A stretch of DNA of 64,000 nt from an uncultured Phycisphaerales bacterium (GTDB lineage Bacteria; Planctomycetota; Phycisphaerae; Phycisphaerales; UBA1924). The notes beneath the pieces are model-generated. The model had not been told where the DNA came from. It saw only the letters and a list, made by a program, of their open reading frames with translations, and made no database searches. The stretch covers positions 27,200 to 91,199 of the forward strand of contig CAXBAF010000007.1 in the NCBI GenBank assembly GCA_963973795.1. The letters are read 5' to 3'. Position 1 is the stretch's first letter; each line of letters starts with the position of its first letter. A program made the translations under genes and the position numbers. Of this stretch, positions 11,104 to 29,567 are shown piece by piece.

Positions 11104-11231
11104 CGCGTCCGGATTGGATCAGGTAGTATCGTTGCGTTGGCGGGGCGGTACGGCGCGGCCGTGCGGTGTCCTTGCCTTGCTGTTTCGTATCATCGCGCCG
11201 CGTCTGGCGGCTGATTCGAGGGGAACGGAAG

Positions 11232-11759
11232 ATGGCTCGCACAAAGGTTTCGACGCGTATCGGTATGGTCCTGCTCGCGGTGTTCGGTGTTGTCGCGGTC
11301 GGCTGCGGCGGGACGTCGTTCAAGAAGTTTGACGTTAATGTGTCGCTCGACGGGTCGATGCCGGCTGGCGAGTCCGTGACGGTGGACCTCATTGCGCTCG
11401 GCGGCGATCGGGCCGAAGAACTCGACGGGATGCCGATGCGGAAGTATTGGACGCTCAATGACCCGTACCGCTCGAGTCTTCTTGCGGAAGGCGTGCTGTG
11501 GACGGCGGAACTCGACGCGTCGAACCCCGAGGCGACGCTCAAGTCAACCAACAAGATCTGGAACTCGCCGATCTGGAAGTCGGGCGGGAAACTGTTCGTT
11601 CTCGCGAAACTCCGGGGCGTCGGGCCTGGTCCGAACGGTGACCCGAGGCGGCGGACCATCAATCGCGACGCATCGCTCTGGACGCAGAAGCGGATTGATG
11701 TCACGGTGCGGCAGGACGGGATCTCGTACTCGCCGACCGAGAAATCCGTCGGTCAGTGA
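11232..11759 (+). CDS. Lipoprotein (175 aa); candidate divergent TssJ
   Basis: ATG 11232, preceded by GGAACGGAAG, gives MARTKVSTRIGMVLLAVFGVVAVGCGG (lipobox). Size and a beta-rich pattern (VTVDLIAL, KLFVLAKL) are compatible with TssJ. The TssJ assignment rests on context only. Confidence 0.65.
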   Translation: MARTKVSTRIGMVLLAVFGVVAVGCGGTSFKKFDVNVSLDGSMPAGESVTVDLIALGGDRAEELDGMPMRKYWTLNDPYRSSLLAEGVLWTAELDASNPEATLKSTNKIWNSPIWKSGGKLFVLAKLRGVGPGPNGDPRRRTINRDASLWTQKRIDVTVRQDGISYSPTEKSVGQ

Positions 11760-11779
11760 TCGATGCGAACAGCCGGTGA

Positions 11780-14700: not shown

Positions 14701-16693
14701 CGCGGCGGATCTTGGGACGCTTTCAGAATCGTCGGGGCTTGTGGCGCGCGGGTACGGCGTCGGTGACCGCGTCGATGGATTCGCGGTGGGTGATCGCGTT
14801 GAACTCGCGTCGTTGGCGGATCGGCTTCGATCGCCCGATGTTCCGTCGGTCGCGGATATCGATGAGATAGATCAGGCGGTTCTGGCGGTTGAGGGGTTGG
14901 TTGAGATTTCACGGGTCGATGACCCCAGCTTGCTGATGGATGCGTTTGTCGCCGAGTGCGGTTCGGCGGGGCGGGCCGGGATCGGTGTTCAGGCGATCCG
15001 ACGGCTCGATTCGATCGGCCGGGACGCGGGCGCGTGGCCGAGTTCGATCGATGTGATGTTGCGAGACCGCGACGGCCTCGCGGACGGGATCTCGGCGCTG
15101 CGGGGCACGGTCCCGGCGGGTGACTTTGAGAAGATTGGTGAGGCGCTCCGCGGGATCGTCCGGGCCTGGTGGCTGCGCGGGGTGGCCGAGGCAGACGATC
15201 GCGGTGACTTTGCGCGGGGTGTGAGCGGCGCGTCGTCGTGGTTCGACGGGGTTGGCGACGGCTGGGTCGGGGTGCTTGGTTCGGAATTGCTGACGGGGCG
15301 GGCTCGGTACAACGCGGCGCTCGTGGGGCTGCGGGCCGAGATCGACGAGTTGGGTAGAAAGGCGATGGTGCAGGCGTCGTCATCGGATTCGAGTGCGATC
15401 CCGGGGATCGATGCTCGGCTGCTGTCTGATGTGCGTGCCAAACTCGGTGAGATCAACCGGCTTGCGCAGCAGACGCTCGACGACGGGGAGCGGGCTCGGG
15501 CGTTGATGTGGGTGCGGGGGTTTGAGCGTGAGCTCAACGACGCACAGGGCGGGCGGCGCGGCTGGGATGAGGCCGGTGTTGGCCCAGTCGGCGCAGGGCT
15601 GGCGAACTGGTCGGCGACGCTGGACGAAAACGTGGAGCCGCCGCGGGTGGTGTATTCGTATTCCCCACCGCAGGCGTCGGACGCGGTGTCGATTGAGTTC
15701 AGGCTGGTCTCTGATTTGCCCAGCGGTGGGCAGGTGTTTCTCGGTGCCGATGAGGTGTCGGTGGCTGTGTTCGGAGCCATGCTTCGCGGAACCGCTGAGA
15801 AGCTTGAGGACCGTTTGGCGGGTTCGATGTACGAGGATGTGGACGGCCGGCTCGAGGGGAACATGGTTGAGGGCCCCTCGACGCGAGAGTTGTTTGCTCG
15901 GCGTGGCGGTCGGTCGCGGTTCCGGGTCCGCTCGCGGGAGCTGTGGCTGGATTCCGAAGACGGGCGCTACGGCCCGCCGGAGCGGAAGGCTTCATTCCCG
16001 TCATACCCGGATGGGTTACGAGGTGCAGACCCGAAATCGATCGCGCCGTCTCAGGGCGAGCCGGACGAGGCCCACCCGGTGAACTACGTGAACTCCGCGG
16101 TGGCGTTCGACCTCGCGGAGGCGTTCGGCTGTCGGCTTCCGACGATCGAGGAGTTTCAGGCCGCGATGTCGGCTCCCGGCGTTCCCTCGGTCCGGAGCGG
16201 GCGATGGAACCTGCGCGATGCGACGTTCGGGCGGCAGGTCGAGCACTTCAAATCGGCGTTCGAGATGGAAGTAACGACGCATTATCAGCCGGGCAAGTGG
16301 TCGTACGACGGGACGAACGGCGCGAGTTCCGCGGACTGGGGTCTGGCGGGTGATGACGACCGACTCTGGTTCTATCGGACGGGCGCGGGCGTGGAGAATG
16401 GGTTTCAGAACGGTGTGCTGTTCCGGCACCTGATCGGGAACGTCGCGGAGTATGTGATCGTCGATGAGGGTGCGCGGGACAGCCGGGGCGTGCGCATTCT
16501 GGGCGCGTCGGCGCTGTCCGACCCGACCGTGTCCCCGGGTGATGTGCGGGAGGTCGATGGGGCGCGGAATGGCTACGTGGACGTGGGCTTCCGCCTCGCG
16601 ATCGACGCGGACGACTTCGGGAGCCTCGGCAAGCTGGTCCGTCGACAGATCGCGGAGTCCGACGATTCGTTCTTCGTTGCGGGGGGCGGCTGA
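11780..16693 (+). CDS. Giant bitopic protein: N-terminal degenerate Ser/Thr-kinase-like (pseudokinase) domain, one TM helix, a helical ectodomain of about 1000 aa and a C-terminal FGE-sulfatase (SUMF1)-fold domain; PpkA-position gene
   Basis: The kinase-like region spans about aa 40-285. It reads CVIEVW where VAIK is expected, PHGGLDASAVLI where HRDLKPxN is expected, and has no DFG (RRVGLRAPA), but keeps DELRRIGLLIFELVQHRPF. The TM helix is WLGRAGIAAAVLGLVGGGVWFGL (nt about 12659-12733). The C-terminus (nt about 15685-16620) reads IEFRLV...GCRLPTIEEFQAA...WNLRD...FRHLIGNVAEYV...GYVDVGFRLA. The TTG 11780 start is uncertain. Confidence 0.8.
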   Translation: MFDVSDRSRETRVGLRGSRGLCGRGACVPLIAGKRADSIGGHAIERPVAVGVRESTWLAYDRTGDPCVIEVWERFDDGPVAGADLDAFVERAALQRRVAAAGGNAERILGGGHVVGVRTLEATDFGAFYTRDRYGVSAAELAAGKVRLRGDALHEIMSGVVGGLQIFRERAGRPHGGLDASAVLISDGAPGKRRVGLRAPATAGELAEIGDPDGDELRRIGLLIFELVQHRPFRAMGGYPVRDGSEWQGLGKSGGFWLGLVNELLAPSGCRLTLGEVASRIAGLRFRVDKPGAGVWLGRAGIAAAVLGLVGGGVWFGLRPSEEAPRADYRDSEFEQWLRTVPVVVSLRERVGAMPDAPAVLREAVGRLDPESTPRGGVDDYFDIPSLFEEAELYRVFRARLDGPLPQLVESVQQFAQKDFEARAETQEESEDQKRLERLAFLFRKGLARFGVETESEQVADAGGVQDETGETAGGGSSDPVDEATLSLLDSFSHDNWASHGMIAGLVEGDGVAWFRPSAASLFSSQLDEIRDGLSVLADGATDFDGATAHRPVVGAVEETVGRFVGAVESVERTAGVIGVWRDGLYPRIESGSSVIAAASAWPDVPASVADDLPDGGDPYLASFESFAERVGVVGDGETDEDLGRRLEAAAAAVDAVRAVIERGWDAGSVDLLAHAAWVESARDRIAERPAASDGDELAVWIDARIALSEEWLESVASATPVAADSDWPAADFASELAATRDLWREAMRDARQDTLEAEAEIAGGVGVIAPALDAVEERLREVRRQPRWRSLRDEVDSESRGLERDFASLATMIERIHAQVLQPPRDLIAFWRENPIRVEGFDGAEELALAGGAIVERYAVEWERWAAGEGLDDEALKRAPQTDRLRTALRGVDEVVRAAAEDVLGVLGEARAYGRFDGDAVEGAVGRWLAGRFAEAVLSFEGWSDKSRLGDDGVFATRLGSLADEAGSTLDALAADLGTLSESSGLVARGYGVGDRVDGFAVGDRVELASLADRLRSPDVPSVADIDEIDQAVLAVEGLVEISRVDDPSLLMDAFVAECGSAGRAGIGVQAIRRLDSIGRDAGAWPSSIDVMLRDRDGLADGISALRGTVPAGDFEKIGEALRGIVRAWWLRGVAEADDRGDFARGVSGASSWFDGVGDGWVGVLGSELLTGRARYNAALVGLRAEIDELGRKAMVQASSSDSSAIPGIDARLLSDVRAKLGEINRLAQQTLDDGERARALMWVRGFERELNDAQGGRRGWDEAGVGPVGAGLANWSATLDENVEPPRVVYSYSPPQASDAVSIEFRLVSDLPSGGQVFLGADEVSVAVFGAMLRGTAEKLEDRLAGSMYEDVDGRLEGNMVEGPSTRELFARRGGRSRFRVRSRELWLDSEDGRYGPPERKASFPSYPDGLRGADPKSIAPSQGEPDEAHPVNYVNSAVAFDLAEAFGCRLPTIEEFQAAMSAPGVPSVRSGRWNLRDATFGRQVEHFKSAFEMEVTTHYQPGKWSYDGTNGASSADWGLAGDDDRLWFYRTGAGVENGFQNGVLFRHLIGNVAEYVIVDEGARDSRGVRILGASALSDPTVSPGDVREVDGARNGYVDVGFRLAIDADDFGSLGKLVRRQIAESDDSFFVAGGG

Positions 16694-16701
16694 TGGACCG
16701 G

Positions 16702-16986
16702 TCAGTCGGTGATCAGGGGCACCGTCGCGTAGGCGTCTCGCTCGAGTCGGCGGAAGTTGGCCTCGGCGTGCGCGAGCCTGATGTGGCTGGCGAACATCGC
16801 GGCGCCGATCGAGTCGGTGACGGCGTAGGAGTCCTGCACGACCGGGTTCGGACGGAACCCGAGCGAGGCTTTCGAGGACGTGTGGCACCCGGTGAGCGCG
16901 ACCATCGCGGCGATGGCGGTCGCGGCGATGCAGGCTTTGCGGGTCGCGTTGCGGGCGGCGTTGTCGTTGTTCATAGCAGTCGGCAT
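16702..16986 (-). CDS. Small lipoprotein (94 aa), unknown function; the only minus-strand gene inside the block
   Basis: ATG 16986, preceded by GGAGGGAAACCAGCC, gives MPTAMNNDNAARNATRKACIAATAIAAMVALTGC (lipobox LTGC). It converges on the stop of the 1637-aa gene. The track ORF 16702..17115 extends further upstream. Confidence 0.5.
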   Translation of the reverse strand: MPTAMNNDNAARNATRKACIAATAIAAMVALTGCHTSSKASLGFRPNPVVQDSYAVTDSIGAAMFASHIRLAHAEANFRRLERDAYATVPLITD

Positions 16987-17210
16987 GGCTGGTTTCCCTC
17001 CGGGCGGGTCCGTGTACTGAACCGTCGGATCCGTATCGGCGGCGTGAGGCCGAGCTTTGAGATTGCGGGGGAGATGCGAGGCCGGGTAGTCGGTTTGTCG
17101 GGGTGGGGTCGGCAAACGCCGCGTGATCGGACGGCGGCAACGGCATCGGGGTCGTGGTCTGCGCGGTTTCCGGACGGTCTGTATGATGCGCCGAGCATGA
17201 GATCGGGCGT

Positions 17211-18176
17211 GTGGCGTTGGACGCCGCGTGGGTCCGCAGGAGTCGTGGGATGAGTGGCATGGGCGGAGAAACCTGGCGATCGCTCGCGGAACTGACCGCG
17301 AACCGGCTTCGGCTGATCCAGGCGGATCTTGCCGATGAGTCCGCGGAGTCGCGGCGGGCTCATCTGGATGACGAGGTGCGGGCGGCTCTGGAGAAGGTGC
17401 CCAATGCTGAGCGGAACGATTTTCTGGAACTCATCGAGGATCGATTCCCGGCATGGGAGGGGGGGCGCGTTGTGAGCGGAGCGTCTGAGGGCACGCTGGT
17501 CTCGGCGACCGACATGGCGGAATTCAACGATCCGGCGTTTCTGCTTCGGCAGCTCATGAAGGCCGCTGAGCAGATGACCCCCGAGCAACGCCGGGAGGCC
17601 GGCGAGCGTCTTGCATCGGTGGGCATCGCGCCCTCGGGTGTGGGCGAGATCCCGGTCGAGTCGCTCGCGAAGGCAAAGGCTTCGATGCAGGCGCCAGCGG
17701 ATGCTGACGTGGATGCGGGCCGGGTGCTCGAGGCGTCGGCGCTGCTGGCGGATCAGGTTCTTCTGTTGGACACGCTTGTATGGAAGATCTGGCGACAGAT
17801 CGCGCCGGATTCGCAGCACCGGAGCCGGACGCAGCTCGGCGCAACGATGTCGTCGTACCTGACGGGGAGCGGTGAGACCGGGCGGGGCGAGGTTGCGGAG
17901 AGTCTCGAGCGGTTCCGCCAGCTGACCGCGGCGCTCGTGAGTTCGATCGGCAAGGTTGGGAGCACGGCGTTCACGCAGCTGAGCCAGCTGAACCCCAACA
18001 ACATCGAGACGATGGCGAAGGACGAGAAGAAGTGGAACGAGAGCCTGGAGCTCGCGGCGTGGCGGAAGTATCGCGAGCTCGCGGGCAAGATGGATCAGGC
18101 GACGGTTGAGAACGAGATGATGCGCGCGGTGTCGCGTACGGTTGAGGACATCATCCGCCCGCGCGGGCGTTCGTGA
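17211..18176 (+). CDS. Hypothetical cytoplasmic protein at the fha/tagH position upstream of tssK; no FHA domain visible
   Basis: The ORF lies directly upstream of tssK with a 52-nt gap and is helical and acidic. The C-terminal half (FTQLSQLNPNNIETMAK..KW..LAAWRKYRELAG) is reminiscent of the non-FHA C-terminal region of TagH/Fha-type proteins, recalled from memory only. The start codon is uncertain, with several in-frame Met codons. Confidence 0.6.
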   Translation: MALDAAWVRRSRGMSGMGGETWRSLAELTANRLRLIQADLADESAESRRAHLDDEVRAALEKVPNAERNDFLELIEDRFPAWEGGRVVSGASEGTLVSATDMAEFNDPAFLLRQLMKAAEQMTPEQRREAGERLASVGIAPSGVGEIPVESLAKAKASMQAPADADVDAGRVLEASALLADQVLLLDTLVWKIWRQIAPDSQHRSRTQLGATMSSYLTGSGETGRGEVAESLERFRQLTAALVSSIGKVGSTAFTQLSQLNPNNIETMAKDEKKWNESLELAAWRKYRELAGKMDQATVENEMMRAVSRTVEDIIRPRGRS

Positions 18177-18228
18177 TCGCTGATCGCGGGCGGCGCTGGG
18201 CATTGGTGAGAAAGGGTTCGGGTGATCG

Positions 18229-19593
18229 ATGTCGGTCGAGGTGCACTGGCATGAGGGCCTTTTTCTTCAGCCGCACCACCTGCAGGCGTTCGGCCGGCAG
18301 GTGTGGGATCGCTCAAGGCGAGACCGGCGGCTCGGCTGGGGCTATCCCTACGGCGTTGTCGAGAGCAGGCTGAGCACGGACGAACTCGCGAACATGCGGG
18401 TTCGTTTCGATCGGCTGCGTGCGGTGATGCCCAGCGGGATCGAGGTCGATTGTCCCGGCAACTGCGACCTGCCCTCCCTGGATATCTCGGAGCGGTTCGG
18501 CTCGAGCACGGCCTCGTTCACGGTGAGCCTGGGTGTGCCGCTCTGGCAGAAGGAGCGAGCGAACTCGCTCGAGATCGGTGAGAGCGACTGGCGCGTCAAG
18601 CGGCTGTACCGCGTCGAGGAGCGCGAGAGCCCCGACGAGAACACCGGCGAGAACCCTCAGGGCATGCTGGTGCGGAAGGTCAACGCTCGGCTTCTGATGG
18701 ATGGGGACGACACGACGGACATGGAGATCGTGCCCCTCGTGCGGATCGGGCACGCCGCGGGTGAGGACATCGGTTCGCCTCGGCTTGAGCGGACCTTCGT
18801 GCCGCCCTGCATGCTGCTGAGCGGGTCGAGCGTGCTCCGTGAGATGATGCGCGGTATCGCGAACGACGTGGAGGCCGCGCGGGGCGAGACGGTTGTGCAG
18901 ATGACGCGGGGCGGGTTCAACATCGAGCAGATGCGTGGAGTGCACGTTCAGCAGATGATCAGGCTTCAGACGCTGAACAACTACGCCGCTCGGCTCATGC
19001 ACATGGTGCGGGCCGAGGGTGGGGTGAGCCCGTTTGACATGTATCTCGAGCTTCGGGGGCTGCTGGGCGGGCTTGCGTCGCTCCAGCCAGATCGTGATGC
19101 GTGGGACGCGCCGGACTATGACCATGACGACCCGGGACGGGTCTTCGAGGTGGTCTGCGACCGGATCCGTGCACAGCTGCGGAGCGAGGGCACGGCGAGC
19201 TGGGCTCGGGTGCGGTTCGAGCTCAAGGACGGCCTGCTGGTTGCGGAGCTCTCGGGCGAGCAGTTGACGAATCCGAACGAGTACTTCTTGGGTGTCCAGA
19301 CCGGCCGCGACCCGCGTGAGGTGGCGAAGATGGTCGAGGATCAGGGCGAGTTCAAGCTGACGGCGCTGAGCAAAGCGACGACACGTGTGCGTGGCGTGCA
19401 CCTTGCTGAAGAGCGGCACCCGCCGCTCGAGCTCCCGGCCCAGATAGGGCTGCACTACTTCCGTGTGGATCGGAGCCAGAGCACGCGGGTTTGGGGTCTG
19501 ATCGAGGAAGAGAAGATGCTGGCGATTAATTTTCCGGGCGTCGAGCGTAACGAGTTCGATGATGTTTCGCTGTACATGACGATCCCCGACTGA
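18229..19593 (+). CDS. tssK: T6SS baseplate protein TssK (ImpJ/VasE)
   Basis: The N-terminus VHWHEGLFLQPHHLQ is the TssK signature. Length is 454 aa, and the gene precedes tssL and tssM. Confidence 0.9.
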   Translation: MSVEVHWHEGLFLQPHHLQAFGRQVWDRSRRDRRLGWGYPYGVVESRLSTDELANMRVRFDRLRAVMPSGIEVDCPGNCDLPSLDISERFGSSTASFTVSLGVPLWQKERANSLEIGESDWRVKRLYRVEERESPDENTGENPQGMLVRKVNARLLMDGDDTTDMEIVPLVRIGHAAGEDIGSPRLERTFVPPCMLLSGSSVLREMMRGIANDVEAARGETVVQMTRGGFNIEQMRGVHVQQMIRLQTLNNYAARLMHMVRAEGGVSPFDMYLELRGLLGGLASLQPDRDAWDAPDYDHDDPGRVFEVVCDRIRAQLRSEGTASWARVRFELKDGLLVAELSGEQLTNPNEYFLGVQTGRDPREVAKMVEDQGEFKLTALSKATTRVRGVHLAEERHPPLELPAQIGLHYFRVDRSQSTRVWGLIEEEKMLAINFPGVERNEFDDVSLYMTIPD

Positions 19594-19612
19594 ATCGGCG
19601 GTTCGGTGTCTC

Positions 19613-20356
19613 GTGCGCGGGGCGTGCCCCGGACGCGGGCTGGAGCGATGGATGAAGCTTCTAGCGGTCTGTGAAGAGATTTTTCAGTATGCGTGCCGGC
19701 TGAATCGGTCGGCACGGAAGGGGGCTCCTTTGGAGCCCGCGATGGTGCGCTCGGACATCAAGACCGTTCTGTCGCGGGTGCGGTCGAAAGCGGGTGGTGA
19801 TCCGCTGCTCGCCCAGCAGTACGACCGGGTTGAGCGCCCGCTGATCTACTTCATTGACTTCATGATCGAGGAGAGCGAACTCCCGTTTGCGAGCGAGTGG
19901 AAGGCGAACCGCCTGCAGAACGAGTACTACAGCGTCAACGACGGCGACGAGCACTTCTTCGACATGCTCGACGAGACGCTGCGGGACAACAGCCGGGAGG
20001 CGACGGATCGGCTGAGCGTGTTCTACACGTGTCTCGGCCTGGGATTCACCGGTTTCTACGCGGGGCAGCCTGAGTATCTGCGTCGCAAGATGATGGAGAT
20101 GAACGCTCGTCTTCGGGATGTGATGGAGACCGAAGCGGGGGCGAGGATCGTTCCCGAGGCGTACGAGTACACGGACTCGACCGACCTGATCCAGCCTCCG
20201 ACGCGGAGCCTGGTGAGCCTGGTCATTGTGATGTTCGTTGTGCTGGTCTCGCTGATCGGCACCAGCGTCTATCTGTACTTGGAGCAGTCCGCGGAGATGC
20301 GGCGGGCGTTCGAGGCGATCGACGAGGTGGTCAAGAGCGATGTGTCCGATGGGTAA
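19613..20356 (+). CDS. tssL: T6SS membrane complex protein TssL (DotU family)
   Basis: Motifs RPLIYFIDFMIEES and DRLSVFYTCLGLGFTGFY are present, with a single C-terminal TM helix LVSLVIVMFVVLVSLIGTSVYLYL. The start may be ATG 19652 rather than GTG 19613. Confidence 0.88.
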   Translation: MRGACPGRGLERWMKLLAVCEEIFQYACRLNRSARKGAPLEPAMVRSDIKTVLSRVRSKAGGDPLLAQQYDRVERPLIYFIDFMIEESELPFASEWKANRLQNEYYSVNDGDEHFFDMLDETLRDNSREATDRLSVFYTCLGLGFTGFYAGQPEYLRRKMMEMNARLRDVMETEAGARIVPEAYEYTDSTDLIQPPTRSLVSLVIVMFVVLVSLIGTSVYLYLEQSAEMRRAFEAIDEVVKSDVSDG

Positions 20357-20419
20357 CGACCGGTGCGATCTCGCCGCCGCCGCTGAGGGCCGCGGGGTGA
20401 TCGCCGGAGGCGGAGTCTG

Positions 20420-23400
20420 ATGCAAGCATTGATCTCAAAGTTCATGGCGCTCCCGATCCCCGGCAAGGCCGTGATCGGAATGGTCATGGCGGGCGGCATC
20501 TTCGGTGTCTGCCATCTTCTCGGGATGAACGAGCTTGGGTACTTCCTCGGGATCGCGATGGCGGTCGTGACGGTGGTGCTTGCGCTCTTCGGTCTCGTGA
20601 TGGAGAAACGCGACAAGAAGAAGGCCGAGAACGTCGAGGCGAACATCGCGGACAGCGCCGCGGCGACGCCGTCGGGTGTCAGCAAGGTTGCGGACCGTGC
20701 GAAGCTCGACGATCTGCGTCGTCAGTTCGAGTCTGGAGTCCAGACTTTCCGTGACTACGGCAAGAACCTCTATGACATGCCCTGGTATGTCGTGGTGGGC
20801 GAGCCGGGATCGGGCAAGACCGAGGCGATCCGTCACAGCGGCATCGGCTTCCCGCCGGGGCTCCAGGACCAGCTCCAGGGCACGGGCGGCACCGTCAACA
20901 TGAACTGGTGGTTCACCGATCAGTCGGTGATCATCGACACGGCGGGCCGTCTGATGTTCGAGGACGTTGCACCCGGGGATAACAACGAGTGGAAGGAGTT
21001 CCTGAAACTCCTGCGGACGAGCCGGCCGAACTGCCCGATCAACGGGATGCTGCTGGTGATCCCTGCCGACACGCTGATTACTGATAAGCCGGACGAGATC
21101 GAGAAGAAGGCGGGCAAGATCGCCCAGCAGTTCGACCAGATCCAGCGTTCTCTTGGTGTGCGTTTCCCGGTGTTTGTGCTGATCACGAAGGCCGACCTCG
21201 TCAACGGGTTCCGCGAGTTCTTCGATGACATCACCGATCCGCGGTTGACGGCGCAGATGCTCGGGTGGTCGAACCCGGCGGACCTCGATGAGCCGTTCAA
21301 GCCTGATCGTGTAGAGGAGCACCTCGACAGCCTGCGGCAGCACCTGCTTCAGCGTCGGTTCGCGATGCTGCAGGACCCGATCCATAGCGAGGATCCGAAG
21401 GGACGTCGGATCGACCAGGTCGATGCGCTCTACAAGTTTCCCGAGGCGGTGACTGAGCTTGGCCCGCGGCTTCGGCGGTATCTCGAGATGATTTTCGTCG
21501 CCGGCGAATGGAGCCAGAAGCCTCTGTTCCTGCGCGGGATCTACTTCACGAGCTCGATGCGGGAAGGCGATGCGCTGGATGCGGATCTGGCGGAGGTTCT
21601 CGGCGTCGGGGTTTCGTCGCTGGCGGAGGGCAAGCTTTGGGAGCGGGAGCGGAGCTACTTCCTTCGGGACCTGTTCCTCGACAAGGTTTTCAAGGAGCGT
21701 GGGCTCGTCACGCGTGCGGCGAACGCGGGGCAGGTGAAGCGCAAGCGGGCCATGCTGATCTCGGGGGCGGCGGCGGTGGCTTCGCTTCTGCTCGGTGCGA
21801 TGATTTGGTACAGCTACTCGCAGACCAAGGCGCAGATCCAGAATCCTCGTGATTTCTGGGTCGAGGTGCGGGGCGCGGTCGAGGAGGTGGCGAGCACGGC
21901 GGAGGGGAACGATGATCTGTCGCAGGCCGAGGCGTTGCGGCAGTATCTCAGCCCGCTGACCGTTCGGTACTCCGATGCGAGTGTCCGGGATCTGATTATC
22001 GCGCAGCCGTTGGAGAGCGAGGACGCGGCGGTCCGCTTGGGCGGGGTGAAGCTGACGTACCTTGAGGTTTTTGAGCGGGCGAGAAAATACTACGAGGAGA
22101 ACAGTTCTTCGAGTGGTCTGTTCGCGCTGATCGCGGCGCTCCCCGGCGGCGGCAACGATATTTTCAAACGCCAGTTGCCGGCTCAGCGGGGACTGTTCGA
22201 GCAGCTCGTACTCGTCCGCGCCATCGAACTGGCGCGCGGAGACATCATCGACGGCGGCGCGAATCGCTCAACGCCGATCGGCTGGGGTGATGGTGCGCTG
22301 GGATCGAAGGCGCTCGCCGCGATGATCGCGCTCGAGGCCGATGGGACGATGGGGAACGGCGAGCCGCTCCCCGCGGAAACGATCGACGAGCTCGTGCGAT
22401 TCGCGGTGGCGGCGGAGGGTCCGGACGCCGTCGATGCCGACGCGATGACTCGGCTTCGGGAGTACGCCTCTTGGTTGTATTCAGGGGACTCTTCGTGGCC
22501 GCCGGAGACGCTCCCGGTTGGCACTGAATCCGCGAACGCAGCGGTGGAACGCGGTATCGAGGCGTTCAATCGGTTCTGGCGTAATCCATCCGGTGAAGGC
22601 ACGCTGTTTGGTGCGTTGAAGACACTCGAGGCCGCGGGCGGTTCGCTCACCGCTGCGGAAGAAACCCTGGCGGGTGCGTCGCGTGAGTTGGGTGCGGCGG
22701 CGACTGAGGCCGCGTTCGATGAGAAGAAGGGAGCCTGGCTATCTGCCTACGACCGGTATCGCGCGTCGTATGACGCGTTCTCGACCGCACTGGGCGAGAT
22801 CCCGGAGCAGTACGTGCGGAGCGATTTCGGCTCGGCGGCGTTGCCTGAGGAGGCTCGGCTCGCGGTGTGGGACAGCGCGAGCTCGGCGTACGACGAACTC
22901 ATCGGGCGATTCGGTGACGAGACCCGGCGCGAGAAGCTCGATCCGGAGAATGAGCGTGAGGCCTGGTTGATCGATCAGCGTGAGGCCTTGGTCGCGGCGC
23001 GGAACACCGCGGAGAATGCGTACCGGTCGACGGCTGAGCAGCTCGTTGGCTCGATCCGGGACCGGATCCTGCCTCGGCATCTCGCGCAGCGGGGTCTGGA
23101 CAGGGTCTTTACTGTTCGTTCCAACCTCTTCGCCCAGGCGCACGGGGCGCTGACCCAGGAACGAGTGAGGACAGGGGATTCGCTGCGGGCGGAGCTCGAT
23201 TCGATCAAGTCAGCGCCGGATTCGCAGGTCGTGCCTGCCACAGGCGAGGATCTGGCGTCTGCGGCCCAGTCGGCACGGCTGGTGCACGAGGCTGCGGCAA
23301 GGTCAGCTCGGTATGCGGCGATGCGTGACGACCTTGAAAGGTTGCGCGATTGGGAACAACTGCTGACACGGGAGTCGGCCGATCCGTTACCGATGATTCC

Positions 23401-24829
23401 GTTTACGGGGTTGTCGTCGCTCGAATACGAGCGTCGTTTCGCTCCCGAGAACAACAAACTTGTGCTTGGTTCATTCACCGAACTCAGGGCAGCGATCGAT
23501 CGTCCGGGTGAGGACGGGTCGGCGTATGTGCTGGACGCGGAGAGCCTGAGAACCTCGCTCAAGTCGATCGAGCGAGGACTCGAATCGCACCTCGACGAGT
23601 ACGAACGGTTCTGGACCGAGGACGTCCCGGCGGCGATCCAGGTTCAGCCGGGCCCCTCGGTGACCTGGCGTGATCTGCTCAATGAGCTCCCCAACTCCCG
23701 TCGGATCTTCGACGCGTTCGAGACGCTTCGTGAGATCATGGGCGAAGCATTGGGGGACCCCGCCACGGCGACAAACAATCGGGTCGCCGATCTCGCGAAG
23801 GCGGTCGCCGAGGAAGAAGACGACGATGATCTCCGAGGGATGATCCGGACCGATGTCGTCGCGAGATGGCGTCGGCTGTCCGACGACGCCGCGAGAGCCG
23901 GCGAGTCGCTTCGGCTCTCGGCGGAACAGAAGGAGGTTATGGACGCCTACTTCCCGCTCGAGCAAACGGCGGCGTTCAAGGACCCCTGGGAGCTCGGGCC
24001 TGAAGAAACGTATTGGCGGAGCTTCACGCTCGCGGCGATCGAGCGGATCGCTCGTGAATCGGCGGATGACAAGGAAGGGGCGATCGTCGCGGTCGAGCCC
24101 CTCTGCAGGCGGTTCCCGATCACCCTGAACGCGGACCCGGCAAACGGCCTCGATACCGAGGAGATCCGCCGGGTCGCGAGCACGCTCGGCGGGGTGGGGG
24201 TGCTCGCATCGAGCACGCCGATCACGGCTGTCGCGAGCCCGTTCGATTGGATCAGCAGCGACGAGATCCGTCAGGCCCTTGACAGGATCAGCGGTCGGAG
24301 CCTGCTGCAGGATGCGCCGCGCGTCGGCCGGTTGCGTCGGGCTCTGGGCACGGCGGAGTTCCTCTCCAAGAACGCGGGGAACCTGACGTTCACCCTCGCG
24401 GCGCAGGGGGCGAATTATCCGAAGAACGTCGAGCAGGGAACGCACACGATCTGTGAGCAGGTCGATGTGGCTGGGAAGCCGAACGTTCTCGGCGAGCCTG
24501 GTTTTACGCTGTTTGAATCCCGCGAGGTGTTCTGGGACAACTACTACTGGTCGCTGCCGATGGGCGACCGGATCGAGTTCCGGTTCCAGAATGCGAACCG
24601 CGACGCGCCGGTGACCGCGACGCTCGGGCGTTGGGCGGCGCTCTCGTCGCTCGCGAGCGTTGGCGGGGCGGTCGAGTTCAACGATGGGACCCGGCGGGCG
24701 CAGGTCTGGCCGATCGAGTTCAGGCTCAGCAATGGCCGGTCGTTCTGGATGGGGGCTGTGTTCAGCGGGGGGGACGCCGACGCGTTGTCGGAGATGCGGA
24801 ATTCGTGGCTCACGAAAGAAGAGTGGTGA
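20420..24829 (+). CDS. tssM: T6SS membrane complex protein TssM (IcmF family), 1469 aa
   Basis: Two N-terminal TM helices and a third at AMLISGAAAVASLLLGAMIWYSY. Walker A motif VVVGEPGSGKTEAI and IIDTAGR are present, followed by a long periplasmic C-terminal region. Confidence 0.9.
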   Translation: MQALISKFMALPIPGKAVIGMVMAGGIFGVCHLLGMNELGYFLGIAMAVVTVVLALFGLVMEKRDKKKAENVEANIADSAAATPSGVSKVADRAKLDDLRRQFESGVQTFRDYGKNLYDMPWYVVVGEPGSGKTEAIRHSGIGFPPGLQDQLQGTGGTVNMNWWFTDQSVIIDTAGRLMFEDVAPGDNNEWKEFLKLLRTSRPNCPINGMLLVIPADTLITDKPDEIEKKAGKIAQQFDQIQRSLGVRFPVFVLITKADLVNGFREFFDDITDPRLTAQMLGWSNPADLDEPFKPDRVEEHLDSLRQHLLQRRFAMLQDPIHSEDPKGRRIDQVDALYKFPEAVTELGPRLRRYLEMIFVAGEWSQKPLFLRGIYFTSSMREGDALDADLAEVLGVGVSSLAEGKLWERERSYFLRDLFLDKVFKERGLVTRAANAGQVKRKRAMLISGAAAVASLLLGAMIWYSYSQTKAQIQNPRDFWVEVRGAVEEVASTAEGNDDLSQAEALRQYLSPLTVRYSDASVRDLIIAQPLESEDAAVRLGGVKLTYLEVFERARKYYEENSSSSGLFALIAALPGGGNDIFKRQLPAQRGLFEQLVLVRAIELARGDIIDGGANRSTPIGWGDGALGSKALAAMIALEADGTMGNGEPLPAETIDELVRFAVAAEGPDAVDADAMTRLREYASWLYSGDSSWPPETLPVGTESANAAVERGIEAFNRFWRNPSGEGTLFGALKTLEAAGGSLTAAEETLAGASRELGAAATEAAFDEKKGAWLSAYDRYRASYDAFSTALGEIPEQYVRSDFGSAALPEEARLAVWDSASSAYDELIGRFGDETRREKLDPENEREAWLIDQREALVAARNTAENAYRSTAEQLVGSIRDRILPRHLAQRGLDRVFTVRSNLFAQAHGALTQERVRTGDSLRAELDSIKSAPDSQVVPATGEDLASAAQSARLVHEAAARSARYAAMRDDLERLRDWEQLLTRESADPLPMIPFTGLSSLEYERRFAPENNKLVLGSFTELRAAIDRPGEDGSAYVLDAESLRTSLKSIERGLESHLDEYERFWTEDVPAAIQVQPGPSVTWRDLLNELPNSRRIFDAFETLREIMGEALGDPATATNNRVADLAKAVAEEEDDDDLRGMIRTDVVARWRRLSDDAARAGESLRLSAEQKEVMDAYFPLEQTAAFKDPWELGPEETYWRSFTLAAIERIARESADDKEGAIVAVEPLCRRFPITLNADPANGLDTEEIRRVASTLGGVGVLASSTPITAVASPFDWISSDEIRQALDRISGRSLLQDAPRVGRLRRALGTAEFLSKNAGNLTFTLAAQGANYPKNVEQGTHTICEQVDVAGKPNVLGEPGFTLFESREVFWDNYYWSLPMGDRIEFRFQNANRDAPVTATLGRWAALSSLASVGGAVEFNDGTRRAQVWPIEFRLSNGRSFWMGAVFSGGDADALSEMRNSWLTKEEW

Positions 24830-24882
24830 GATCTCCCCGGCGGCCTCAGGCGAGGCCGGCCCCGAATCGGAAGCAGGACTGA

Positions 24883-27800
24883 ATGCCGAAATCCGAATCG
24901 CATCAGGTGTCGGCGTCCCAGCGCGTTTGGCTCGCGGTGCTCGGGAAGCACCCGGGCTGGAACGATCACCTCGACGACATCGGTCTCGACACCGAGCGGC
25001 TGGTCGCCGTCAAGCGGCATCTCTATGTCGAGGGTGTCGGCGGGGCGATCAACGCGGGGACGTGGGAGGCGTTGAGCGAGCAGGAGCGTGACGAAGGGTT
25101 CTCGCACACCTTCTTCTGGCGCCAAGCGGACGGCATGGTCATCGGGCGGATGTGGTCGTCGAGCGACGGCAAGGGGCGATCGAAGTACCCGATGATCGCG
25201 TGCGCGATGTGCAGGTCGCTCCCGTTTTCGTTCGTCGCGGGCCCGCTGCTTGAGCGGCTGCGCAGGCTCGAAGCGGTCTGCCGAGAGGTGACGACCGCGT
25301 CGGATGTGATCGGCGCGGTCGATCGGGTAAAGGCTGAGGTTGCCGAACTCGCCTCCTTCGCGCCGGAACTGAGCGACGCCCCGGTCGTGGGTGGTGAATC
25401 CGGGAAGGGCTCCGCCGCGGAATTGATCGAGAGCGGCCGGCTCGGCGAGGAAGGAGTCGGTCTTAAGCGTGTGCTGTATCAAATGGACCGCGAGATGGGC
25501 GCCTACGTCCGCCCCGAGGGAAGCGGGACCGCAAGCCGATCAAGATCGGTTGAGGTCCGCGGGCAGCACATCCGTGTCCCGACGTCGTCGGGGCCGATCT
25601 CGCCCGGGCAGGAACACCGGGATCTGAGCCTTTGGGCCCGTCTCCTGCTCAACAAGATCGATCCGTTGGTTCCGATCTTCCTTGCGACCAAGGACGGACG
25701 CGATTGGGTCGACATCATCGTCGGGGAGTTAGGGCCCACGCCGCTCGCGTGCCTGCAGTCTTCGCCCGAGGCGATGCCGTATGTCTCTGACATTCCCTTT
25801 ACGATCGATGGCGATATCGAGCAGTCGATCGAGCAGACCATCGAGGCGTCGCGTGCCGGGACAGTCGTCGAGCGAGATCCGTGTTTCGTTGACGTTCCGC
25901 AGGAACGGCTTGCACCGTTCCTGCGTCCACGCCGGGCAGAGACAAGCGCTGCGGAAACCGATCGGAAGCCGCTCTTTCTCGGGATCGGGGCGGCCGCGAT
26001 CGTCGTGGTGGTTGTTCTCGCTTTCCTGCTGATGCGGGGTGGCGGTGACGGCGTGGATCAACCAGAGACCCGCGAGCAGAGCCGCGCAGAGCCTGCGGAA
26101 AATCCTGCTGCCACCGAGATCAGCGACGGGCAGACACGTGCGGATCCGGTCAATCCGGCTGCGACTCGGGAGACTCCGCCGGGATCGGCTGTTGCAACGG
26201 ATGATCAGGCCACCGAGCCTGCTCCTGCTGATAGCCCGATAGATCGTCCGACCGAGGTGATCGCGTCCGATCCCGTGGGTCGGCTGGAGGCATTCGAGCG
26301 CTGGTGTGCTCGGTACGAGGTCTGGTATCTGCCGTTCACCGAAGCGATTGAGGACGGGGCAATCGCCGGCGACCCTGTGTTCGCAAAGGAGTTGAAGGCG
26401 GCGATCGCCTCCGCGAAGCGCGAGGGCGACCGGCTCGATCCGCTGATCAATACTCCCGGGCGATATCGGAGCCTCGACTCTCTGAGAGAGTCTCCACCCG
26501 ATGCGATCTACGAGCCCGGCTTCGGTGAGACGATCGCCGCGGGGCTCGGCCCGATCGAAACGATCCGGTCGGTGATGCATTCGAGCCGCTGGGAATCGAG
26601 GGAAGCCCTCTCTCGAATGGCGACGCTCACGGAGTCGTTCGGTGGGGTGATGCCGGATGACCTGTCGGCGTTGTCGTTGAGGCTCGATTCGGATGATGGA
26701 GCGGAAGCCGCGGGCGCGGTTCTCGGCCTTGCGGCGGTGTCTGGCAGCCTTGGTGCGAGCGTCTCCGCGATGGACCAACTGATCACGGTCCGAGGTGAAC
26801 TCGAATCGATCCCGGACAACTCTGTTGCGAGGGCGTTCGATCGGCTCAGCCCGATCGGGGAAGAAAGTTCTGGCAACACATGGCTCGCCGAGGCCCGGCG
26901 CAGGTCACTCGAACTCGTCGCGTTTGGCGAGGAATTGCTCGAAGCCGCGGAGTCTAACTATCCACGCGTGGATCCGGAGCTCTTTGCGGGGCGGATCGCG
27001 GCTTTGCCTGAAGCGACCGATTCGGCGACCGCGTTGGCGTACCTCCGGGGCTGGATCGAGACGACCCGGGACCGGTCGCTCTACCTGCTGGCTCCCGCGG
27101 ACGATCCCCGACGCGGGTTGTCTGAGCCGGAACGCGTCGCGGCGTTGCGGGAGGGATTGCAGAATCTGGCGGTGTCGGACGATAACGCCGAGACCCGCGA
27201 GCTCACGGGCCTTCTCGACGCGTACGACGAAGCCGCGAGCGAGTTGCGCGACCTTTCGTGGAACGAGGCGACCAAGGCCCGCGTCACCGAGGAAACAGTG
27301 GCGCTCACCGCGCTGCTGGATGGGATTGCGGACCGCATCGACGCGGAATCACGCAGCCGAGCGATCGAAGCAGAACGATACATCGCGACGCTGAACGCGA
27401 CGGGGACCGTCACGAATTCGGGATCTGACGCGATCGATCGCGCGTGGATCACAGCACGCGACGCCGCGGTCGATCGGTTTGAATCTGATGGTGATGTCGT
27501 CGCACTCTCAAGGGCGATCGACACCACGAAGGAAAGCCTCGCGTCGTTTGAATCGGCGATGCCGAGACCTGAGTTCGACGACGGTGCGTTGGGAACACTC
27601 TCGGCGATGTTTGTCTCGACGGCGGATGAAGAACGCGAACGGGTTCTTTCCGACTTGACCACAGCGGCTGATGCGGCGTCGGACGACGACGCCCTCGCTT
27701 TGTACAACGAGTGGCGTGAGAGAATCGTCGAGTCTTCTGGCTCGTTGGTGTCGCTGCGCGATGGTTTGGACACCTGGGACGATCGCGAGGCTCGCGAGGC

Positions 27801-29478
27801 GGCGGAGCAGTGGGGCGGCTCCTGGGCGGCCGCAAACATGGAATGGCGAGCAGAAGCGCCGGAACTTGGTCGGTATATCGAAGCGCTCGGCTCGCCGAAC
27901 CCTGTCCGTCTCGGGGAGATCGCGCAGTCGCCCGACTCCCAGCCGGGGATCGCGTTTGTGGCGTGGAGCCGCCTCGACGAGGCCGACCCGGAATGGGGCA
28001 CGTCGATCGAGCAACTCGAACTGGATCGGGTCGTGACGGGGCGTCTCGCGGAGTCTGTCGCAGCTCTCCCCGAAGCGAGGGCGGCGGAGGTGACTTCGAG
28101 CATGTCTCGATCGGCGACGGCGCGGTGGCTCCGAGGTGCATCTTCGTGCGACGCTGCACAGTTTTCGAGGATCGCAGCGATCGGTGGTGATCTTCCGCTC
28201 GCGGAAGACCAACTCCCGGCTGGCGTCCGATTCAACCTGTTTGTCGAAGGGCTCCGGCGCTCGCTGGGTCGGGGCGAACCGCTCGACCGGGAAGAACTCG
28301 TCGCTCAGGCAGAATCGGCGCGTGCTGGCCTCGATGAAGGCGGTGGAGCGAGCGCCTGGCTGGCGTCGTTCGTTGATGAGCTTACGGCCCGAGAGGGGCG
28401 TGAGGTTGACTACCGCGTCATCGGCCCGGCGAGAGCGGGGTGGGCTGTTGAGCCGTTCGATTCGGGGCGTGTGCTCCGATATTCATGGACCGGCGCGAAC
28501 CAACCCCGTGAACTGACATTCCGGCTCGTTGAATCGCCGGAGGCCGGCGTGTTTTATCTGGCGGAGACCGAGGCTCCGGCGTGGTTGATGATCGATTTCG
28601 TGCTCAATGGCGAGTACGCCGAGGCCGTGGCATCGAGCCTCCCCGAAGATTGGGACCCGATCCCCGACACCCGGCTCGGGCCGAGAGTCTGGGATTGGGG
28701 GCGGCAGCGAGGCGGCCGCGGGATCCGACTGGCCCGCACCTGGGTGATGAAGGATCGAGGGTCGGACCGGCCGTATTACGCGGACGGGTTCGAGGATCGT
28801 GTCGGCCGACCCGGTGATGACCACCCGATCCAACGAGTTTCAGCTCGGGCGGCGGCGAGCATCGCGGCAGCGGCCGGCTGCCGCTTGCCGACGCAGGCGG
28901 AATGGCGTGCCGCCTTCGGCACGATCGGGAGTCCTCCGCCGAGTGCGGATTGGAATCTCCGCGACCGGACATTCGACGAGCAGCGCTCGCACACGCTCTC
29001 GCTCGGCGCGGGGCTCGCGGTGACGTGGCCCGACCAGCAGTCGTTCGTCGATGGCATGGACGGGATCGGGCAGGGGCCGGACGCGGAGAGCCACGAATGG
29101 TCGGATGGCGTGCTGTGGTTCACCGAGGTCGCGGCGGGTCGTGAGCGTCCGTTCCGCCACCTTCTCGGGAACGTCGCGGAGTATGTGCTGCCGGAAACGA
29201 ACGACGCGGCATGGCTGTCGGATCGGGGCGGCGACGTGGGAAGCCGCGTTCGTGCGCTCGGTGCGGTCTCGCGGGTGCTTCCGGTCATCGGTGGTTCGTC
29301 GCTCTCGCCGCCGGGCGTTGGCGTTGATCGGGCGGTCGTCCCGGCGACCGACACCGGCGTGCTCGGCTACTCAGATGTCGGCTTCCGGCTCGCGTTTTCG
29401 CCAGGGGTTGAAGCGCCGCTGGTGGTTGTGGTCGGGGAGCTTCTGGGCGATGCGCCGTTCTTGCGCATGGCTGATTAG
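24883..29478 (+). CDS. tagF: TagF (DUF2094) domain fused to a TM helix, a giant ectodomain and a C-terminal FGE-sulfatase-fold domain (1531 aa)
   Basis: The N-terminus reads VWLAVLGKHPGWNDHL and IGRMWSSSDGKGRSKYPMIACA, matching the TagF patterns GKLPsrGDFv and pS.D.vGR.yPl. The TM helix PLFLGIGAAAIVVVVVLAFLLM lies at nt about 25969-26034 and is followed by a Pro/Thr/Ala-rich linker. The C-terminus (nt about 28507-29410) reads LTFRLV...GCRLPTQAEWRAAFG...WNLRD...FRHLLGNVAEYV...GYSDVGFRLA. Confidence 0.8.
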   Translation: MPKSESHQVSASQRVWLAVLGKHPGWNDHLDDIGLDTERLVAVKRHLYVEGVGGAINAGTWEALSEQERDEGFSHTFFWRQADGMVIGRMWSSSDGKGRSKYPMIACAMCRSLPFSFVAGPLLERLRRLEAVCREVTTASDVIGAVDRVKAEVAELASFAPELSDAPVVGGESGKGSAAELIESGRLGEEGVGLKRVLYQMDREMGAYVRPEGSGTASRSRSVEVRGQHIRVPTSSGPISPGQEHRDLSLWARLLLNKIDPLVPIFLATKDGRDWVDIIVGELGPTPLACLQSSPEAMPYVSDIPFTIDGDIEQSIEQTIEASRAGTVVERDPCFVDVPQERLAPFLRPRRAETSAAETDRKPLFLGIGAAAIVVVVVLAFLLMRGGGDGVDQPETREQSRAEPAENPAATEISDGQTRADPVNPAATRETPPGSAVATDDQATEPAPADSPIDRPTEVIASDPVGRLEAFERWCARYEVWYLPFTEAIEDGAIAGDPVFAKELKAAIASAKREGDRLDPLINTPGRYRSLDSLRESPPDAIYEPGFGETIAAGLGPIETIRSVMHSSRWESREALSRMATLTESFGGVMPDDLSALSLRLDSDDGAEAAGAVLGLAAVSGSLGASVSAMDQLITVRGELESIPDNSVARAFDRLSPIGEESSGNTWLAEARRRSLELVAFGEELLEAAESNYPRVDPELFAGRIAALPEATDSATALAYLRGWIETTRDRSLYLLAPADDPRRGLSEPERVAALREGLQNLAVSDDNAETRELTGLLDAYDEAASELRDLSWNEATKARVTEETVALTALLDGIADRIDAESRSRAIEAERYIATLNATGTVTNSGSDAIDRAWITARDAAVDRFESDGDVVALSRAIDTTKESLASFESAMPRPEFDDGALGTLSAMFVSTADEERERVLSDLTTAADAASDDDALALYNEWRERIVESSGSLVSLRDGLDTWDDREAREAAEQWGGSWAAANMEWRAEAPELGRYIEALGSPNPVRLGEIAQSPDSQPGIAFVAWSRLDEADPEWGTSIEQLELDRVVTGRLAESVAALPEARAAEVTSSMSRSATARWLRGASSCDAAQFSRIAAIGGDLPLAEDQLPAGVRFNLFVEGLRRSLGRGEPLDREELVAQAESARAGLDEGGGASAWLASFVDELTAREGREVDYRVIGPARAGWAVEPFDSGRVLRYSWTGANQPRELTFRLVESPEAGVFYLAETEAPAWLMIDFVLNGEYAEAVASSLPEDWDPIPDTRLGPRVWDWGRQRGGRGIRLARTWVMKDRGSDRPYYADGFEDRVGRPGDDHPIQRVSARAAASIAAAAGCRLPTQAEWRAAFGTIGSPPPSADWNLRDRTFDEQRSHTLSLGAGLAVTWPDQQSFVDGMDGIGQGPDAESHEWSDGVLWFTEVAAGRERPFRHLLGNVAEYVLPETNDAAWLSDRGGDVGSRVRALGAVSRVLPVIGGSSLSPPGVGVDRAVVPATDTGVLGYSDVGFRLAFSPGVEAPLVVVVGELLGDAPFLRMAD

Positions 29479-29567
29479 GTTGCTTTGTGTGCGGCTGTGA
29501 CGGCCGGTGCGGGTAGTTTGTGCTAACATATGCGTGGGTGATTTTCCACCACGAGCGGGGTTTTGTC

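Follow-up and report, generated by a model that had tools for sequence, protein, structure and literature searches.

TagF is regarded as a soluble cytoplasmic brake on the T6SS (type VI secretion system), and the only published TagF fusion that we found in the literature searched is the cytoplasmic TagF-PppA. In PpkA (TagE), the Hanks-type Thr kinase of the T6SS, an N-terminal kinase fold is followed by one transmembrane (TM) helix and a C-terminal region in the periplasm. PpkA is activated from the periplasmic side by TagR (2026 review of T6SS accessory factors). Here we describe two proteins, which we term A and B, from the T6SS cluster of an uncultured Phycisphaerales bacterium (GenBank assembly GCA_963973795.1, contig CAXBAF010000007.1). 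The stretch that we analyzed, which we call the window, is 64,000 nt long (contig positions 27,200 to 91,199, forward strand), and the coordinates of A, B, and their neighbors are window positions. A has a pseudokinase head and B has a TagF head; in each protein a single predicted TM helix joins the head to a large, probably periplasmic region that ends in a domain of the formylglycine-generating enzyme (FGE) superfamily. We propose that A and B are paralogous single-pass inner-membrane accessory proteins of a T6SS type of the Planctomycetes-Verrucomicrobia-Chlamydiae (PVC) superphylum, and that they may form a phosphorylation-independent switch that spans the envelope. Judging from sequence comparisons and structure models, we put the probability of this reading at roughly 0.55. 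The features of the two genes are as follows.

11861..16693, + strand: gene for protein A, 1610 amino acids (aa), with pseudokinase head, TM helix, long ectodomain, and FGE-like domain (100% identical to database protein P0060; family alignment).
11861..12664, + strand: head A, kinase fold, predicted cytoplasmic (AlphaFold2 model, Foldseek).
12671..12739, + strand: single predicted TM helix of A, at about aa 271-293 (hydropathy peak kept in 11/11 family members).
12740..15625, + strand: middle ectodomain of A, rich in Ala, Glu, Asp, and Arg, homologous to that of B from about nt 13106 (hhalign, composition).
15626..16615, + strand: FGE-sulfatase-like domain of A, probably non-catalytic (PF03781 at 16.5 bits, E = 0.007; BLASTP to B; joint profile).
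24883..29478, + strand: gene for protein B, 1531 aa, with TagF head, TM helix, linker, long ectodomain, and FGE-like domain (59 homologues found, 37 aligned).
24883..25917, + strand: head B, TagF domain and C-terminal extension, predicted cytoplasmic (AlphaFold2 model, Foldseek, invariant motifs).
25969..26037, + strand: single predicted TM helix of B, at about aa 363-385 (hydropathy 3.0; kept in 37/37 aligned members).
26038..28452, + strand: Pro/Thr/Ala-rich linker of B (to about nt 26292), then Ala/Glu/Asp/Arg-rich ectodomain homologous to that of A (hhalign, composition).
28453..29400, + strand: FGE-sulfatase-like domain of B, probably non-catalytic (PF03781 at 26.8-29.9 bits; profile matches to FGE structures).
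16436..16456 and 29167..29187, + strand: two identical copies of the 21-nt block GGGAACGTCGCGGAGTATGTG, which encodes GNVAEYV.

In its fold, in its GK / D / S-x-D-x3-R residues, and in its slot directly after tssM, B resembles TagF of P. aeruginosa (PA0076) and A. baylyi (ACIAD2683) and TagF-PppA of A. tumefaciens. Unlike these proteins, B is a membrane protein of 1531 aa, in which the TagF domain takes up the first 345 aa and about 1150 aa are periplasmic; it scores below the Pfam threshold and has no Fha partner in the locus. In Acinetobacter, TagF requires the bitopic protein TagZ, which crosses the membrane once and has a variable periplasmic domain, and whose membrane anchor is needed for TagF action. 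By analogy, the TM helix and ectodomain of B would supply the TagZ function in cis, but TagZ is a separate, short protein, and the likeness is one of function and not of demonstrated homology.

A shares with PpkA the N-terminal kinase fold, the one TM helix, the periplasmic C-terminal region, and the location in a T6SS cluster. Unlike PpkA, A is without the key catalytic residues, a Pfam Pkinase match, an Fha substrate, or PppA, and its periplasmic part is Ala/Glu/Asp/Arg-rich and then FGE-like. Dead kinase folds also sit as scaffolds on the membrane proteins EssB/YukC (of type VIIb secretion, T7SSb) and MviN/Rv3910, and Rv3910 is among the best structural matches to head A; however, these proteins belong to other secretion or cell-wall systems and have other ectodomains, and the likeness is at the level of the fold only. 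Single-pass planctomycetal Ser/Thr kinases with a periplasmic FGE-sulfatase domain match A in kinase fold, TM helix, and periplasmic FGE domain. In contrast to those proteins, which are reported as kinases and without a T6SS link, A has a dead active site, an insertion of about 950 aa before the FGE domain, and a TagF-headed paralogue. Finally, TagR (PA0071), like A and B, places an FGE-sulfatase superfamily domain on the periplasmic side of a T6SS control pathway, but TagR is secreted as a protein of its own and acts together with TagQ, TagS, and TagT, whereas A and B carry the domain in covalent linkage and the locus has no TagS/T genes. In full-text literature searches we came across no account of TagF anchored in the membrane, of a pseudokinase in a T6SS, or of T6SS accessory proteins from planctomycetes, and the 2026 review of accessory factors does not include the components of this locus type. 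A and B are a variant of known T6SS regulators that is not described in the literature searched.

That A and B are paralogues had been suggested by the first-pass annotation from six pairs of C-terminal motifs. All six pairs are present in the translations, and BLASTP aligns A1065-1608 with B1020-1505 (E = 3e-20, 29% identity); a local alignment of the C-terminal domains has 116 identities among 296 aligned residues. The similarity also runs through the middle region: profile-profile comparison with hhalign gave a probability of 100 and E = 1.7e-67 over 958 columns (414-1561 of the A profile and 517-1520 of the B profile), so that it begins about 120-165 residues past the TM helix and continues to the C-terminus. 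As judged from these alignments, the homology spans nearly the whole periplasmic part and goes beyond the C-terminus. One correction concerns the length of A, which had been read from a TTG at 11780 (1637 aa); the GTG at 11861 is the most likely start and gives 1610 aa, equal to P0060. The 21-nt block had also been noticed earlier, near 16434 and 29167. There are two exact copies only, the first of which lies 2 nt further on, and none were expected in shuffled sequences. We considered recent gene conversion as its cause and rejected it: the aligned C-terminal domains use the same codon at 58 of their 116 identical residues, as against 50.4 expected from codon usage, and are 51% identical in nucleotides. 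Because codon sharing is as expected from codon usage, the block is no evidence of recent gene conversion; it appears instead to reflect the old conserved motif GNVAEYV.

Each family has exactly one conserved hydrophobic helix, preceded by positive charges, and no signal peptide, from which we infer that the heads are cytoplasmic and the ectodomains periplasmic. Both middle regions, of about 800-950 aa, consist to 43% of Ala, Glu, Asp, and Arg, as had been proposed; their helical nature, which was part of the same proposal, is predicted from sequence, and the ectodomain would presumably form a helical stalk.

The head of B was recognized as TagF by its fold and its invariant motifs, in agreement with the first reading of the sequence. 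An AlphaFold2 model built with 19 homologues had a pLDDT of 86.9, and the top six Foldseek matches to it were all TagF of A. baylyi or P. aeruginosa (9t0n with E = 1.3e-7, then 6iz8 and 2qnu), with probabilities of 0.99-1.00 and template-modeling (fold similarity) scores of 0.41-0.56 when normalized by the target. G21, K22, D28, S93, D95, and R99 (GK / D / S-x-D-x3-R) are invariant in 37 sequences, and their spacing is that of G22K23, D29F30, and S93D95R99 in TagF of A. tumefaciens. In that protein, G22K23 and S93D95R99 are needed for Fha binding and repression, and D29F30 is needed for repression only (PMC5995506). Head B has His29 in place of the Phe of DF, and no DW pair is apparent. A canonical TagF of a related alphaproteobacterial cluster and head B share this register (AFGKIPATGDFI versus AVLGKHPGWNDHL; PSVDAAGRYFPL versus SSSDGKGRSKYPM). 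The Pfam model TagF_N (PF09867; gathering cutoff of 27 bits) did not match the B protein of the window, and among its relatives it gave 5/19 weak matches (best E = 0.006; 19.7 bits for P0033). Scans against Pfam (down to E = 10) and NCBIfam found nothing for either head, and the PDB, when searched with sequence profiles, yielded no TagF or kinase for them; the heads were resolved only by structure prediction and Foldseek. From the fold model and the motif comparison, we conclude that head B is a divergent but genuine TagF domain. TagF-type repression of the T6SS through Fha binding would, for head B, have to do without a partner from the locus, where no FHA gene was found.

Head A is a pseudokinase and not an active PpkA. 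Its AlphaFold2 model (pLDDT 85.9) matched 1820 protein kinase entries in the PDB at E ≤ 1e-3, with template-modeling scores of about 0.65 and with the Rv3910/MviN pseudokinase of M. tuberculosis among the top matches, and yet there was no Pfam Pkinase match even at E ≤ 10. The catalytic residues are replaced. Glu43, which is invariant in the family, stands at the position of the beta3 (VAIK) Lys, and the glycine-rich loop is absent. H148-G149-G150 takes the place of HRD (the family has H-G-(D/G/R/E), with Asp in 6/9 aligned relatives), Ala or Ser stands at the catalytic Asn (Ala in the window protein), and R167-V168-G169 takes the place of DFG. Alignments to PknB and to a kinase linked to the T6SS are each weak (E = 0.12), yet they fall in the same register (RPHGGLDASAVLI = IIHRDVKPANIMI, RVGL = DFGI), and they agree with each other and with the order of strands and helices in the model. 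As read from the alignment, the catalytic Lys, Asn, and DFG Asp are lost across the family and the HRD Asp is lost in the lineage of the window. The most conserved stretch of head A is in the C-lobe (GYPVRDG..W..LG....FWLGLVNELL.P), which suggests a protein-docking surface. The first-pass annotation called this head PpkA-like, which holds for its architecture and genomic context but not for its catalytic residues. Because there is no Fha or PppA in the locus, the PpkA-type phosphorylation pathway is not encoded there; the related alphaproteobacterial cluster has both.

Membership of the C-terminal domains in the FGE-sulfatase superfamily could be checked with PF03781. B matched the profile (26.8-29.9 bits against a cutoff of 23.3), though only at profile positions 87-136, the HP..V..A..GCRLPT..EW core, whereas A by itself fell below the cutoff (16.5 bits) but is homologous to B. 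A joint C-terminal profile of both families and more canonical relatives matched human FGE structures in two stretches, at the start and the end of the domain (E = 9e-11), and it also matched bacterial FGEs and EgtB/OvsA and, weakly, PorK/GldK. One relative, P0038, covers positions 39-254 of the 255 in PF03781 (E = 4.6e-12). In the alignment, the domains of A and B have two large insertions relative to compact FGE domains. The catalytic Cys pair of FGE is absent: each domain has one Cys (C1424 in A and C1333 in B), both within GCRLPT, and there is no Cys between GGS/GAS and GFRLA, where the alignment places the active-site stretch GGSYM(C)HRSYC of human FGE. Because the pair is absent, we expect the C-terminal domain to be a non-catalytic module of the FGE fold.

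The window contains one T6SS cluster, 3' of murC-murB-ddl-greA, and nearly all of its genes are on the + strand (the exception is one small lipoprotein gene on the − strand). Its first part encodes, in order, a 658-aa protein, a 175-aa lipoprotein, protein A, a 94-aa lipoprotein (−), a protein of about 308 aa, TssK, TssL, TssM, and protein B, with B directly after tssM. It continues with a ShlB/FhaC-type transporter, a 2747-aa protein with a two-partner-secretion (TPS) domain, TssA, TssB, TssC, Hcp, TagJ, TssE, TssF, TssG, and ClpV. One block lies between A and B:

18229..24829, + strand: tssK-tssL-tssM (Pfam VasE, DotU, and IcmF-related_N).

Among the called, Pfam-annotated genes of the cluster, we found no FHA, PP2C, Pkinase, or ABC-transporter domain.

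To see how widespread this arrangement is, we turn to the TagF-like head. An exhaustive profile search with head B gave 1002 clusters at 50% identity (E ≤ 1e-3), and a scan of 185,579 species genomes gave 384 loci. These are mostly from Phycisphaerales, Sedimentisphaerales, Tepidisphaerales, Planctomycetaceae, and Pirellulales, with a few from Verrucomicrobiota, Kiritimatiellae, and Victivallales. B-type proteins occur in metagenome-assembled genomes of Phycisphaerae and other Planctomycetota, with A-type proteins on the same contigs. We examined the neighborhoods of 80 of the 384 loci, 60 of which had a scorable upstream flank. Among the 80, wherever the upstream flank was recovered, the TagF-like head lies about 4.4 kb 3' of the start of tssM, after a gene for a protein of about 300 aa, tssK, and tssL. 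The arrangement A, small lipoprotein, ~300-aa protein, tssK-L-M, B, TpsB, TpsA is seen again in divergent genomes.

The TagF-like protein takes three forms: soluble (about 300 aa), head plus TM helix (about 380 aa), and a fusion that is 700-1860 aa long and includes an FGE domain. Another FGE domain, located about 9 kb upstream in the position of A, was found with 28/34 long forms as against 11/26 short forms (Fisher p = 0.002, 60 loci). In other TagF fusions there are PEGA/CarboxypepD_reg domains, or the FGE domain comes after TPR repeats. Behind the short TagF of one Verrucomicrobiota locus lies an active Ser/Thr kinase of 2941 aa, which has a zinc ribbon, TPR, and some 15 Ig-like repeats. 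(Unfused or TM-only heads and kinase-paired TagF can be seen in our loci L045, at 9965-20637, and L034, L036, L047, and others, around 10001.) A related plasmid cluster from Rhodobacterales, with a TagJ that is 49% identical, has the classical separate genes for TagH, TagF, PP2C, and a kinase. Of the plasmid T6SS loci found through TagJ, that of Qingshengfaniella has TagH, TagF, PP2C, and a kinase, and tagR is not present; in the stretch of the Thiodictyon plasmid T6SS locus that was examined, none of TagH, TagF, PP2C, kinase, or tagR was found. The PVC loci look like a form of the classical pathway that has been remodeled by loss of TagH and PppA, by inactivation of the kinase, and, in many cases, by fusion of TagF. 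At the level of sequence and gene content, the series of fused and unfused forms is the pattern that a Rosetta-stone argument needs, in that it would connect a periplasmic module of the FGE type with heads of both kinds, PpkA-type and TagF-type.

The first-pass annotation went further and proposed that a TagR-type sensor had been attached to both heads. It took TagR to be an FGE-sulfatase protein, and at the level of annotation this is correct: PA0071 is annotated as "FGE-sulfatase domain-containing protein" and belongs to COG1262. The link from TagR to the domains of A and B appears to hold at the superfamily level, with a TagR-specific origin unproven. A periplasmic FGE (sulfatase-modifying-factor) domain is the third most common accessory domain of Planctomycetota Ser/Thr kinases, mostly periplasmic in single-pass proteins (PMC11032199), and a proteobacterial family of Ser/Thr kinases also carries an FGE-sulfatase domain. 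Because such domains are common on kinases, the module of A and B need not derive from TagR, and a link between kinases and FGE domains is not unique to this cluster. At close to even odds, then, there is no TagR connection at all: the FGE-like domain would have been recruited from the general planctomycetal pool of kinase-linked domains and later copied onto TagF, and a likeness to TagR at the superfamily level only would say nothing about how TagR, PpkA, and TagF are coupled in Pseudomonas. The ectodomains do seem to be interchangeable, because related loci carry other domains in their place (Ig-like and TPR domains on the Verrucomicrobiota kinase, and PEGA/CarboxypepD_reg or TPR on TagF). 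On the other hand, this alternative concerns origin only; it is compatible with a trans-envelope switch and leaves standing the functional analogy, in which a domain of the FGE type controls a PpkA-type head from the periplasmic side. Querying with the C-terminal profile mostly brought up pieces of the same family, along with FGE proteins linked to TIR, caspase, or TPR domains, and gave no information on TagR. A neighbor-joining tree of the C-terminal domains is star-like at depth and too weak to show which protein donated the ectodomain; in it, the Phycisphaerales A clade is one derived group, and two distant A-type proteins fall among the B-type domains.

The same annotation held that tagQ, tagS, and tagT are missing. 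The cluster has no TagS/T-type genes, but the absence of tagQ is not certain, as two conserved small lipoprotein genes flank A. One of these, at 16702-16986 on the − strand between A and the ~308-aa gene, encodes a 94-aa protein with a signal peptide and an LTGC lipobox, which is kept in L004, L005, and L008 with the common motif D.LGAAMF. This lipoprotein might have a TagQ-like role as a partner of the ectodomains in the outer membrane.

We propose that A and B each couple a different cytoplasmic head for T6SS control to the same kind of large periplasmic module, which would consist of a long stalk ending in a non-catalytic binding domain of the FGE/TagR type. B would bring the TagF brake, and A would bring a PpkA-like kinase fold without catalysis. 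The ectodomains, which may pair with themselves or with each other, would pass on, across the membrane, a cue from the periplasm or envelope, which could be a ligand, a partner in the outer membrane, or damage to the envelope. As a result, the TagF brake would be released or engaged and the pseudokinase scaffold would be placed at the site of TssJLM/TssK assembly, so that firing would be controlled post-translationally without Thr phosphorylation. We infer that a cue is sensed, that A and B pair, and that their role is regulatory rather than structural. Such a switch is consistent with the need of TagF for TagZ, with the action of TagR from the periplasm, and with the catalysis-independent roles of PpkA, which has kinase-independent scaffold and localization functions and interacts with TssJ/L/M independently of catalysis.

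Several points weigh against a trans-envelope switch. First, Fha, the known target of TagF, is absent from the locus. Second, the co-occurrence of A and B is enriched but not obligatory, as 6 long-form loci are without an upstream FGE domain and 11 short-form loci have one. Third, Hanks kinases encoded elsewhere in the genome could phosphorylate A or B. Fourth, FGE-fold domains are also purely structural elsewhere, for example in PorK/GldK.

A more specific version of the proposal is that the PVC bacteria have a phosphorylation-independent T6SS checkpoint in which the TagF brake and a PpkA-derived pseudokinase are hard-wired to the same TagR-type sensor and act antagonistically, possibly as a heteromer. 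On this view, the occurrence of both split and fused forms would amount to genuine Rosetta-stone evidence that periplasmic domains of the FGE type directly control both types of head, in Pseudomonas too. We regard this version as possible but rather unlikely.

The main rival to a regulatory switch is a structural role. A and B might be envelope-spanning accessories of the PVC T6SS membrane complex, with stalks that bridge the periplasm and an FGE fold that docks onto the outer membrane or cell wall; we consider this doubtful. The pseudokinase would then act like EssB/YukC of the type VIIb system and the FGE fold like PorK/GldK of the type IX system. The A and B genes do lie inside the tssJ-like / tssK-L-M block in every locus with a recovered upstream flank, the pseudokinase is incapable of phosphotransfer signaling, and the C-terminal profile weakly matches the PorK/GldK lipoproteins. 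Also, a membrane pseudokinase is reported to be a core part of T7SSb, and the interaction of PpkA with TssJ/L/M does not depend on catalysis. However, head B retains the exact motifs by which TagF represses secretion. Moreover, 15/60 scorable loci have only a soluble TagF-like protein of about 300 aa and no detectable second FGE protein, and because these loci do without the ectodomains, the ectodomains seem to be dispensable for building the machine.

We think it very improbable that the FGE-like domains are periplasmic formylglycine-generating or related oxidative enzymes, as membership in PF03781 favors this but the lone Cys in GCRLPT, the lack of any Cys in the segment aligned to the FGE active site, and the large insertions speak against it.

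Some neighbors of A and B are also unusual. The protein of about 308 aa (17250-18176) had no family or PDB match. Its gene is directly 5' of tssK wherever the flank was recovered, and it occupies the slot that tagH (Fha) has in the related alphaproteobacterial cluster. We considered it as a TagH, but similarity to TagH is not detectable; it is a candidate target of the TagF head. No relatives of the 658-aa protein (9127-11103) were detected in Pfam, NCBIfam, or the PDB. The 175-aa lipoprotein (11232-11759; lipobox VAVGC) is TssJ-like in size and position but did not match the TssJ model. TssM (20420-24829) is divergent: only its IcmF-related N-terminal domain is recognized, and its match to TIGR03348 ends at profile position 496 of 1168 with a score of 311.6, below the curated cutoff of 388.

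Directly after B, inside the T6SS cluster, is the TPS pair, the ShlB/FhaC-type transporter (29520-32252) and the 2747-aa TPS-domain protein (32351-40594). The pair recurs in most related PVC loci and also adjoins tssA in the Rhodobacterales plasmid T6SS (NZ_CP042263.1). The pair seems to be a conserved accessory of this kind of T6SS, and it is not among the factors in the 2026 review of T6SS accessory factors. As for the window as a whole, its G+C content is 64-69%, and it matches marine-metagenome contigs (a TARA scaffold and DDFO01000054.1 of GCA_002337215.1). Over the first ~30 kb, GC skew is +0.10 to +0.28 and AT skew is mostly negative, whereas both are near zero for 30000-64000, despite most genes, including the whole T6SS cluster, being on the + strand. 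A Gly/Asp/Glu/Arg-rich protein composition and replication are possible causes.

The TagF-like head, present in 384 species genomes, defines a T6SS locus type, and TagF in the PVC superphylum is missed by Pfam-based surveys. A widespread fusion of TagF to a TM helix and a TagR-type ectodomain, beside a paralogue with a dead kinase, leads to the hypothesis that extracytoplasmic cues may act directly on both arms of post-translational T6SS control, and that the kinase arm can serve as a scaffold without phosphorylation.

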